Positions 18,198-21,585 of a DNA stretch of 64,000 nucleotides are shown here, piece by piece. The notes below the pieces were generated by a model, which was not told the origin of the DNA, searched no databases, and saw only the letters and a list, made by a program, of their open reading frames with translations. The position numbers were made by a program, and so were the translations under genes. The first letter of the stretch is position 1, and every line of letters starts with the position of its first letter. Origin of the DNA: Escherichia coli (lineage in GTDB: Bacteria; Pseudomonadota; Gammaproteobacteria; Enterobacterales; Enterobacteriaceae); NCBI RefSeq assembly GCF_016026235.1, contig NZ_CP065613.1; one strand, given 5' to 3'.

Positions 18198-19476
18198 TTT
18201 AATGCCATGAAGTATGTAAGCTCGTATCGCTCTTGGGCGTCTGGAGGTATCAATGGATAAAGTCAAATATCCAACAGGCGTCGAAAACCACGGTGGCACA
18301 TTACGCATCTGGTTTAATTTTAAAGGTAAACGTGTCAGGGAAAATCTTGGTGTCCCTGACACTGCCAAGAACAGGAAGATCGCCGGAGAGCTGCGGACAT
18401 CTGTATGTTTTGCCATTCGTACAGGAAATTTTGATTATGCTGCGCAGTTCCCTGACTCTCCTAACCTCAAGGCTTTTGGGGTAAATAAAAAAGAAATTAC
18501 GGTGAAAGAACTTGAAGAAAAATGGCTGGATCTGAAACGAATGGAAATCTCTGCAAATGCATTCAATCGCTATGAATCCATTGCAAGGATGATGGTTCCG
18601 AAGATTGGTGGCAACCGACTGGTATCAGCAGTGACCAAAGAGGAATTGCTGTATATCAGGAAAGATTTGCTGACCGGATACCAAAATCCAACAAAAGGTA
18701 AAGCTCCAGTAAAAGGACGAAGCGTTGTCACAGTAAATTATTACATGACAACAATCGCTGGAATGTTTCAGTTTGCTGCAGATCACGGTTACATAGAAGC
18801 AAATCCCTTCGAGGGAATTAAGCCTCTTAAAAGAGCCAGGGCAGAACCAGATCCGCTAACTCGTGACGAATTTATTCGCCTGATAGATGCTTGCCGGCAT
18901 CAGCAGACAAAAAACCTGTGGTCATTGGCTGTGTACACAGGAATGCGTCATGGTGAACTGGTCTCCCTGGCCTGGGAAGATATCGATCTGAAAGCAGGAA
19001 CAATTACTATCAGGCGCAATTATACGAAACTCGGTGAGTTCACTCTACCTAAAACTGAAGCAAGTACAAACAGGGTTGTGCATCTTATCCAGCCCGCTAT
19101 CAGTGTCCTGAAAAATCAGGCTGAAATGACAAGACTGGGTAAGCAGCACAACATCAAGGTTCAACTACGTGAATATGGACGTTCAGTAAATCATGAATGT
19201 ACTTTCGTATTTAACCCCCAGGTGGTTAGAAAAAGCAAACAGGTAGGTTTTATCTACAAGGTAGATTCCATTGGCGACTCATGGGAAACAGCCATTAAAC
19301 GTGCAGGCATCAGGCATCGAAAGGCATACCAGTCACGACACACTTATGCGTGCTGGTCATTATCTGCCGGAGCAAATCCAAGCTTCATTGCCAGCCAGAT
19401 GGGGCATGCAAGTGAGGTAGCCTGAGTTTAACGGACACTCCTTCCTGAAATAGAATGGCATCAGAAGGAGCTAATA

Positions 19477-19779
19477 ATGAGCAGAAAAACCCAACGTTAC
19501 TCTAAAGAGTTCAAAGCCGAAGCTGTCAGAACGGTTCTTGAAAATCAACTTTCGATCAGTGAAGGCGCTTCCCGATTATCCCTTCCTGAAGGCACTTTAG
19601 GACAATGGGTTACCGCCGCCAGAAAAGGGCTCGGTACTCCTGGCTCCCGCACGGTGGCTGAACTGGAATCTGAAATTCTGCAACTGCGTAAGGCGTTAAA
19701 TGAAGCTCGCCTTGAGCGAGATATATTAAAAAAAGCAACAGCGTATTTTGCACAGGAGTCGCTGAAAAATACGCGTTAA
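19477..19779 (+). CDS. IS600 OrfA
   Basis: 100-aa ORF identical to copy 2. Confidence 0.85.
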   Translation: MSRKTQRYSKEFKAEAVRTVLENQLSISEGASRLSLPEGTLGQWVTAARKGLGTPGSRTVAELESEILQLRKALNEARLERDILKKATAYFAQESLKNTR

Positions 19780-19814
19780 TCGAACAATGGCGACAACAAT
19801 TTCCCATTGAAGCG

Positions 19815-20633
19815 ATGTGTCAGGTATTTGGTGTATCCAGGAGCGGTTATTACAACTGGGTACAGCATGAACCCTCAGACAGAAAACAAAGTGATGAGCG
19901 GCTAAAACTGGAGATTAAGGTGGCACATATCCGCACTCGCGAAACATATGGAACCCGGCGGCTCCAGACGGAGCTGGCAGAGAATGGCATCATCGTTGGT
20001 CGTGACCGACTGGCACGTCTTCGTAAGGAGCTAAGGCTACGCTGTAAGCAGAAACGCAAGTTCAGAGCGACTACGAACCCGAACCACAATCTGCCAGTTG
20101 CGCCAAATCTGCTGAACCAGACGTTCGCTCCTACAGCACCAAATCAGGTCTGGGTGGCGGACCTGACGTATGTTGCCACACAGGAGGGATGGTTGTACCT
20201 CGCTGGCATCAAAGATGTTTATACGTGCGAAATTGTCGGCTACGCCATGGGAGAGCGCATGACAAAAGAGCTGACAGGTAAAGCCCTGTTTATGGCGCTC
20301 AGGAGCCAGCGCCCACCTGCCGGGCTAATCCACCACTCTGATCGAGGTTCACAGTACTGCGCATACGATTACCGGGTCATACAGGAGCAGTTTGGTCTGA
20401 AAACATCAATGTCGCGTAAAGGTAACTGTTACGACAACGCTCCGATGGAAAGCTTCTGGGGAACGCTGAAAAATGAGAGCCTGAGCCACTATCGTTTTAA
20501 TAACCGGGATGAAGCCATCTCAGTAATACGGGAATACATTGAGATTTTCTACAATCGTCAGCGTCGTCACTCTCGTCTGGGGAATATCTCCCCGGCAGCC
20601 TTCAGGGAAAAATATCATCAGATGGCTGCTTAA
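19815..20633 (+). CDS. IS600 OrfB
   Basis: 272-aa ORF; one substitution (F for S in ...VIQEQFGLK...) relative to copies 1 and 2. Confidence 0.85.
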   Translation: MCQVFGVSRSGYYNWVQHEPSDRKQSDERLKLEIKVAHIRTRETYGTRRLQTELAENGIIVGRDRLARLRKELRLRCKQKRKFRATTNPNHNLPVAPNLLNQTFAPTAPNQVWVADLTYVATQEGWLYLAGIKDVYTCEIVGYAMGERMTKELTGKALFMALRSQRPPAGLIHHSDRGSQYCAYDYRVIQEQFGLKTSMSRKGNCYDNAPMESFWGTLKNESLSHYRFNNRDEAISVIREYIEIFYNRQRRHSRLGNISPAAFREKYHQMAA

Positions 20634-20859
20634 AAAAAGAACAAATGGTAGTGTCCGCTATTGCCAGTACACCTCAAAGTGCCCAGATGGTGTTCAATGT
20701 ATACGGAGCATGGATGACTGACAGCAATGCAGAACAGATCGCAATGCTGAATCAGAAGCTGGCAGATTATGTCCCAATGATGTCCCATGGTCACCAAAGT
20801 GACACAAGAGGCTTATTAAAATCAGTGAGTTAGCTTTTAATACCCGTCATGTTAACTGC

Positions 20860-21585
20860 GTGGAGGGCAACACCACGCTTTACGCCCTGCCGAAACCCGA
20901 GGTTGTCCTGCGCTGGCGTGAACAGACCACAGATGACTTCCGCTTCTGTTTTAAGTTTCCGGCGACCATTTCGCATCAGGCAGCATTACGACATTGCGAT
21001 GATTTAGTGACTGAATTTTTGACCCGCATGTCACCGTTGGCTCCGCGCATTGGGCAATACTGGCTGCAACTGCCTGCCACATTCGGCCCACGGGAGCTGC
21101 CTGCGCTTTGGCATTTTCTCGATTCTCTCCCTGGCGAATTTAATTATGGTGTGGAAGTCCGCCATCCACAGTTTTTCGCCAAAGGGGAAGAGGAACAAAC
21201 GCTTAATCGCGGTTTACATCAGCGCGGCGTTAATCGGGTGATTTTAGACAGCCGCCCGGTTCATGCAGCACGTCCACACAGTGAAGCTATTCGCGACGCT
21301 CAACGAAAAAAACCTAAAGTTCCGGTACATGCTGTACTGACGGCGACAAATCCGCTGATCCGTTTTATCGGTAGTGATGATATGACGCAAAACCGGGAAT
21401 TATTTCAGGTCTGGTTACAGAAATTAGCGCAGTGGCATCAGACCACTACGCCTTATCTTTTTTTACATACGCCAGACATTGCCCAGGCACCGGAACTGGT
21501 ACATACCCTGTGGGAAGACTTACGTAAAACGCTTCCAGAGATCGGAGCAGTTCCGGCTATTCCACAGCAATCTTCTCTTTTCTGA
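20860..21585 (+). CDS. yecE: YecE (DUF72 family) with 5' end altered at prophage junction
   Basis: Translation ...NCVEGNTTLYALPKPEVVLRWREQTTDDFRFCFKFPATISHQ... matches YecE from about residue 31 on; upstream in-frame sequence runs into integrase 3' end, no ATG; GTG at 20860 is the only candidate start. Confidence 0.7.
   Translation: MEGNTTLYALPKPEVVLRWREQTTDDFRFCFKFPATISHQAALRHCDDLVTEFLTRMSPLAPRIGQYWLQLPATFGPRELPALWHFLDSLPGEFNYGVEVRHPQFFAKGEEEQTLNRGLHQRGVNRVILDSRPVHAARPHSEAIRDAQRKKPKVPVHAVLTATNPLIRFIGSDDMTQNRELFQVWLQKLAQWHQTTTPYLFLHTPDIAQAPELVHTLWEDLRKTLPEIGAVPAIPQQSSLF

Follow-up and report, generated by a model that had tools for sequence, protein, structure and literature searches.

In the stretch of Escherichia coli DNA analysed here (64,000 nucleotides of contig NZ_CP065613.1, hereafter the 64-kb window), a prophage integrated in yecE has its integrase gene, int, split by a copy of the insertion sequence (IS) IS600, upstream of the catalytic tyrosine, which is thereby cut off from the remainder of the protein. 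We conclude that this prophage very probably lost the ability to excise itself through its own integrase, because the 390-amino-acid (aa) Int now encoded contains no nucleophile tyrosine, and judging from the sequence we put the probability of this reading at about 0.88. All coordinates below are positions in the window, and all prophage copies of genes and elements are those present there; the left end of the prophage lies outside it. The initial annotation had located the split integrase and its junction with the chromosome at 18253-20860, and both limits are accurate, int starting at 18253 and the remaining part of yecE having its GTG at 20860.

The integrase gene and its IS600 insertion

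The right end of the prophage, up to the last codon of int, is arranged as follows.

17961..18197, + strand: excisionase gene (xis, 78 aa), intact; homolog of phiP27 L02; Pfam DUF1233; inside a block 96.9% identical to positions 182-2511 of phiP27
18253..19425, + strand: int 5' fragment, native codons 1-387 followed by E-V-A and a stop from the left end of IS600; 390-aa product without the catalytic Tyr
19410..19412, no strand: left target duplication AAG of IS600 copy 3
19413..20676, + strand: IS600 copy 3, with orfA at 19477-19779, orfB at 19815-20633 and the A7G site at ~19726; same direction as int
20677..20679, no strand: right target duplication AAG of IS600 copy 3
20680..20833, + strand: int 3' fragment, codons 388-437 and the stop TAG (20831-20833); carries Tyr395 (TAC, 20702-20704)

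When IS600 copy 3 and one AAG were taken out, positions 18253-19412 joined to 20680-20833 gave an open reading frame (ORF) of 1314 nucleotides and 437 codons with no internal stop. Both fragments matched this restored protein at 100% (residues 1-387 and 387-437), and the restored Int aligned end to end with the Int of phage phiP27 (96.6% identity, 16 differences). Compared with the intact Int found at the same site in E. coli FDAARGOS_943, 14 of its 437 residues were different. The fragments therefore belong to one integrase, as had been proposed; the alternative that they represent two unrelated genes was ruled out by the alignment with phiP27 Int.

Pfam recognised an Arm-DNA-bind_2 domain (residues 7-70, E=1.1e-23) and a Phage_integrase domain (residues 202-395, E=1.1e-17) in the restored protein. 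Its catalytic set consists of the Arg-I residue R232, the Y359-Q-S-R362 box, H385 and Y395. On alignment to XerA and XerC-like structures, R362 and H385 fell on the RHxxA...GH motif and, in the XerC-like alignment, Y395 fell on the conserved Tyr. IS600 copy 3 is inserted in codon Ser387, after His385 and eight codons ahead of Tyr395. The initial description of an IS600 lying between an H-x-x-R box and the tyrosine was thus correct in that Tyr395 is cut off, and needs amending in two respects: the first position of the box is Tyr359 and not His, in the restored Int as in that of phiP27, and the insertion follows His385 as well. The catalytic residues no longer lie in one frame, the int ORF stopping at 19425 and Tyr395 being encoded 1.3 kb downstream. 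The truncated protein keeps the arm-binding and core-binding domains and, with Arg232, Tyr359-x-x-Arg362 and His385, most of the catalytic domain; the nucleophile helix with Tyr395 and the C-terminal tail are missing. In tyrosine recombinases the nucleophile is this tyrosine (Tyr342 in lambda Int), and DNA is not cleaved without it.

The exact 390-aa protein is deposited as STM86638.1, under the name 'integrase [Escherichia coli]'. We found it on at least seven contigs, which come from five NCBI assemblies and one Logan run (six samples), among them short-read contigs that cross from int into IS600, which argues that the int::IS600 insertion is real and fixed in a lineage. Among 5,426 complete RefSeq E. 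coli genomes, not one covered the int::IS600 junction.

The element in int is one of three IS600 copies in the window, all 1264 bp long, in the same orientation and with identical exact ends (5' end TGAGGTAGCC..., 3' end ...GTACACCTCA). Their terminal inverted repeats are imperfect in all three copies (left, TGAGGTAGCCTGAGTTTAACGGACAC; right, the reverse complement of TGAGGTGTACTGGCAATAGCGGACAC). Any two copies are distinguished by 2-3 positions, and their identity to the elements of FDAARGOS_943 that PGAP calls 'IS3-like element IS600 family transposase' is about 99% (99.1-99.4% for copy 3). Each contains an orfA of 100 aa (HTH_Tnp_1) and an orfB of 272 aa (rve), with an A7G slippery motif between them. 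In length, imperfect inverted repeats, orfA/orfB arrangement, A7G frameshift site, rve transposase and 3-bp duplications they agree with IS600 of the IS3 family, from which they show no difference of weight, and we identify them as IS600, with orfA and orfB predicted to be joined by a programmed -1 frameshift. Since every copy has its own 3-bp target duplication (CAT for copy 1, GTG for copy 2 and AAG for copy 3), all three are simple insertions, with no IS-IS recombination within the window.

A 62-codon ORF (20645-20833) starts at an ATG in the right end of IS600 copy 3 and runs in frame into the Tyr-bearing int fragment. It is probably a coincidence, because a promoter and terminator scan of 20300-21100 gave no + strand site to drive either the C-terminal int fragment or yecE.

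The attachment site in yecE and related prophages

The junction between prophage and chromosome follows directly on the end of int.

20840..20851, no strand: phage-derived DNA adjoining the core, part yecE-like
20852..20862, no strand: att core TTAACTGCGTG (attR junction), equal to the att of the phiP27 record and to K-12 yecE
20860..21585, + strand: 3' remnant of yecE (DUF72), from native Val32 (GTG)

The GenBank record of phiP27 lists an 11-bp att, CACGCAGTTAA, at both ends (attL and attR), and its reverse complement is the core found here. K-12 yecE holds the same 11 bp (...GCCCGCCACTTTAACTGCGTGGAGGGC...). The core is present once in the window, at 20852-20862, with no second copy, and no yecD was found in the window. 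An alignment to K-12, proposed in the initial annotation as the way to locate the core, gave collinear homology with yecE-yecN-cmoA-cmoB-torZ from 20840 onward at 97.9% identity. Over 20840-20862 (12 phage bases and the core, 23 bp) K-12 differs at 4 positions, and the phage reads R-H-V-N-C where native YecE has R-H-F-N-C. The int stop codon is separated from the core by 18 bp and from the GTG of yecE by 26 bp. Both the proposed closeness of the integrase C-terminus to the altered 5' end of yecE (less than 30 bp) and the placing of the attachment junction inside the yecE 5' region were thereby borne out. We read the locus as a phiP27-type integration at yecE, with its junction at the 11-bp core common to attP and yecE. 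That yecE serves as an integration site for Stx (Shiga toxin) phages, which had also been pointed out, is documented, first through phiP27 (PMC8065619, PMC10042803).

Native YecE has 272 residues, with the DUF72 domain at residues 21-249. Native residues 1-31 are absent from the remnant, which could encode 241 aa from the GTG or a 256-aa hybrid from an ATT at 20815, and about 11 N-terminal residues of the DUF72 domain are gone or replaced. The frame is closed upstream by a TGA at 20800, and the GTG at 20860 is its only classical start codon. The NCBI annotations of both the window genome and FDAARGOS_943 give a 256-aa DUF72 protein that starts at the ATT, in phage-derived DNA. The expectation that YecE would lack its N-terminal 30 residues and start at an internal GTG was therefore right about the loss, and the start differs from the annotated one.

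By analogy, an intact attL should read ...GCCCGCCACTTTAACTGCGTG and then phage DNA like ACACGGCTATTTTAAAAATCACTAAAG (phiP27) or ATACGGGATTTTTAAAAATCACTAAAG (FDAARGOS_943). At the left junction of FDAARGOS_943 (NZ_CP065615.1), ...CACTTTAACTGCGTG passes into ATACGGGATTTTTAAAAATCAC..., and its right junction has the same 11 bp. This genome is close to the one studied here, its chromosomal flank being 99.95% identical to that of the window; it is IS600-rich and has the same integrase type at the same yecE core. However, the int of its yecE prophage is intact, and its own IS600, IS2 and ISEc60 copies lie in other genes. Directly beside attL this prophage carries a type III secretion effector gene, ipaHd, together with dinI (NZ_CP065615.1 ~793454-796412). 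A protein look-up with its IpaHd matched FDAARGOS_943 only; similar look-ups gave just unrelated E. coli prophages for the Q antiterminator, and genomes other than the window's source for YecD. Two other yecE-integrated prophages both have dinI at the attL end, and one of them has NleG-type effector genes.

Prophage make-up, other lesions and host background

The two further IS600 copies lie to the left of xis.

4754..6017, + strand: IS600 copy 1, target duplication CAT; splits a DnaB-type replicative helicase gene (homolog of phiP27 L19) into 135 and 327 aa
15821..17084, + strand: IS600 copy 2, target duplication GTG; at the junction of a Band_7 lipoprotein gene (homolog of phiP27 L05) and the L04 homolog

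Leftward from 20862 the prophage is collinear with phiP27, with gaps, through int, xis, L03-L05, the immunity region and replication genes to ~3462. The collinear blocks are mostly 83-97% identical and one is about 70%. Farther left the genes are lambda-like and not phiP27-like (RusA, a Q-type antiterminator and a class II holin). The matching contig UGFA01000005.1 (E. coli GCA_900449985.1) carries, past the window edge, a lysozyme gene, Rz, KilA-N, a Nu1-like gene and a gpA terminase, the large subunit being annotated at 387 aa versus 699 aa in related prophages. That contig stops ~5.7 kb left of the window start and ~1.2 kb past the gpA gene; another IS or a rearrangement may lie near the shortened gpA gene at the contig end.

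phiP27 (NC_003356/AJ298298), an Stx2e-converting phage reportedly described by Recktenwald and Schmidt in 2002, is therefore a partial counterpart. It shares with the window prophage the 437-aa Int, xis and a collinear L03-L04 (~97% DNA identity), as well as the core, the yecE target and the orientation, with int beside the 3' part of yecE. In contrast to phiP27, the window prophage has an int split by IS600, two further IS600 copies and no stx match, and its Q/RusA, lysis and terminase genes are lambda-like. On the evidence of the window it is a multiply damaged phiP27/lambdoid mosaic, not a copy of phiP27 and, as far as its predicted genes tell, not an Stx phage.

Searches by tblastn with StxA2e and StxB2e of phiP27 gave no match in the window, and the link to Stx conversion is thus limited to the integrase family: 'Stx-converting' is a property of that family, not of this prophage. 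In Stx phages, stxA and stxB lie in a slot between Q or the phage tRNA and the holin and lysis genes. Here that slot (600-2050, within the region 600-2170) holds a + strand ORF of the PmrD family (111 aa, 1344-1679) and a DUF1737 ORF (895-1098). A phage tRNA at 2055-2130, on the minus strand, was called tRNA-Met CAT by ARAGORN, and its phiP27 homolog is annotated as tRNA-Ile ileZ. In the early region (9307-9955 and ~14167-14385) Pfam recognised TumE-family, HVO_A0114-family and ParE-like ORFs, which look toxin-antitoxin- or defence-like.

In the flanking chromosome, genes for motility and chemotaxis show apparent decay. The cheA region (~45309-47095) is broken into two ORFs (292 and 290 aa), and near motA, at 48234-49530, the DNA is 99-100% identical to the IS4-like ISEc60 of FDAARGOS_943 (decay region 44557-49530). 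This is in keeping with a non-motile genome of the Shigella or EIEC kind. Between flhB and cheZ, which are neighbours in K-12, lies a pair of genes (35797-38026). One encodes a 502-aa dGTPase (PADLOC dGTPase model, E=1e-70), the other a hypothetical protein of 250 aa. The pair, also present in FDAARGOS_943 as 'dgt' and a hypothetical, may be a small anti-phage defence islet. Because of the IS load, the decayed motility genes and the ipaHd-bearing prophage of the relative, the host background points to an enteroinvasive or Shigella-like E. coli.

Order of events, competing explanations and significance

Phage integration does not take place without a working integrase, so the IS600 insertion in int was presumably later than lysogeny. 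The anatomy of the locus, the identities of its genes and the att core were observed directly, and the succession that follows is what we infer from them. In an E. coli host of enteroinvasive or Shigella-like type, a temperate phage with a phiP27-type int-xis-attP module would have entered yecE in its 5' part, and recombination at the 11-bp core would have left codons 1-31 of yecE at the opposite prophage end. After lysogeny, IS600 would have entered the Ser387 codon of int by simple insertion with a 3-bp duplication, and translation of Int would now stop three codons inside the element. The Tyr-less Int would no longer cleave DNA, and the prophage would no longer self-excise by its own integrase. 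Given that IS600 has also hit the helicase gene and the L05/L04 junction, and that the terminase gene is shortened, the break in int would be one lesion among several, a step in general IS-driven decay of the prophage.

This is an ordinary and already known kind of prophage decay by IS elements, all parts of which are known. In E. coli O157:H7 Sakai, three prophages, Sp3, Sp11 and Sp12, have a disrupted Int, and excision circles were obtained from only nine prophages (Asadulghani et al. 2009, PMC2669165). Sp3, Sp11 and Sp12 are likewise lambdoid and are fixed residents with further lesions. They differ in having other integrases and att sites, and in that excision was assayed experimentally there, whereas the window prophage is known from its sequence.

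Several points weigh against a loss of self-excision. A second copy of the core would lie at attL, beyond the window, and may no longer exist. Excision might also be carried out in trans by a related integrase encoded elsewhere in the genome, and a separate C-terminal peptide could conceivably be made from the ORF at 20645-20833, in frame with the Tyr fragment. Finally, the restored Int sequence is free of secondary damage, so that the insertion may be recent, and it may be revertible by rare precise excision of the IS.

One may ask whether the break in int is what holds the prophage in place at all, or whether it was a neutral hit on an element already immobile from loss or rearrangement of attL, from the IS600 in the helicase gene and from the truncated terminase. 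We regard this as possible though doubtful. Three IS600 copies lie within 16 kb, one of them splitting the helicase gene, the terminase large subunit is shortened from 699 to 387 aa relative to related prophages, and the flanking chromosome is also IS-decayed in its motility genes. Yet excision needs just Int, Xis and two att sites; xis is intact, and every IS600 keeps its own target duplication, with no sign of IS-IS rearrangement in the window. Nor do defects in replication or packaging stop excision, as Sp4 and Sp14 of Sakai show (PMC2669165). A prophage that can still excise, either by means of a phiP27-type integrase elsewhere or because a Tyr-bearing peptide started at ATG 20645 complements the 390-aa fragment non-covalently, seems to us quite improbable. 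The integrase family is indeed widespread (883 members in its 90% cluster), the int-xis module occurs at no less than 80% query coverage in 98 complete E. coli genomes, the reading frame at 20645-20833 continues into the C-terminal int fragment, and complementation between prophages is documented in O157 Sakai (PMC2669165). However, the 64-kb window contains no second integrase copy, and no promoter-like + strand site was seen upstream of 20645. We know of no phage integrase that works when split between its last His and its Tyr, other than with engineered dimerisation.

An assembly artefact, with a misplaced repeat in int, might be suggested by the multicopy nature of IS600 and the fragmented source assembly; the exact IS ends, the clean 3-bp duplication and the recurrence of the identical truncated protein in six independent samples, including contigs crossing int into the IS, reduce its chances to next to nothing. 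A more speculative idea, to which we give little credence, is that the int::IS600 insertion was not a neutral event. It would have been fixed in an enteroinvasive or Shigella-like lineage by anchoring a prophage with virulence cargo at its far end, for example an ipaH-type type III secretion effector as in FDAARGOS_943. In a related version, the Tyr-less 390-aa Int, which has both DNA-binding domains, would be a dead att-binding protein interfering with incoming phiP27-type phages.

Under the preferred reading, in which the insertion in int ended self-excision, the finding is of small importance outside annotation, where it places the att core, the IS ends and the missing catalytic tyrosine exactly. 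In typing work, it means that an occupied yecE site need not indicate an Stx phage or an inducible phage. The three IS600 copies in the same orientation could later mediate deletions of the prophage interior. More broadly, the locus documents how IS expansion in Shigella-like E. coli would make a phiP27-type prophage, once mobile, a permanent island in the chromosome.

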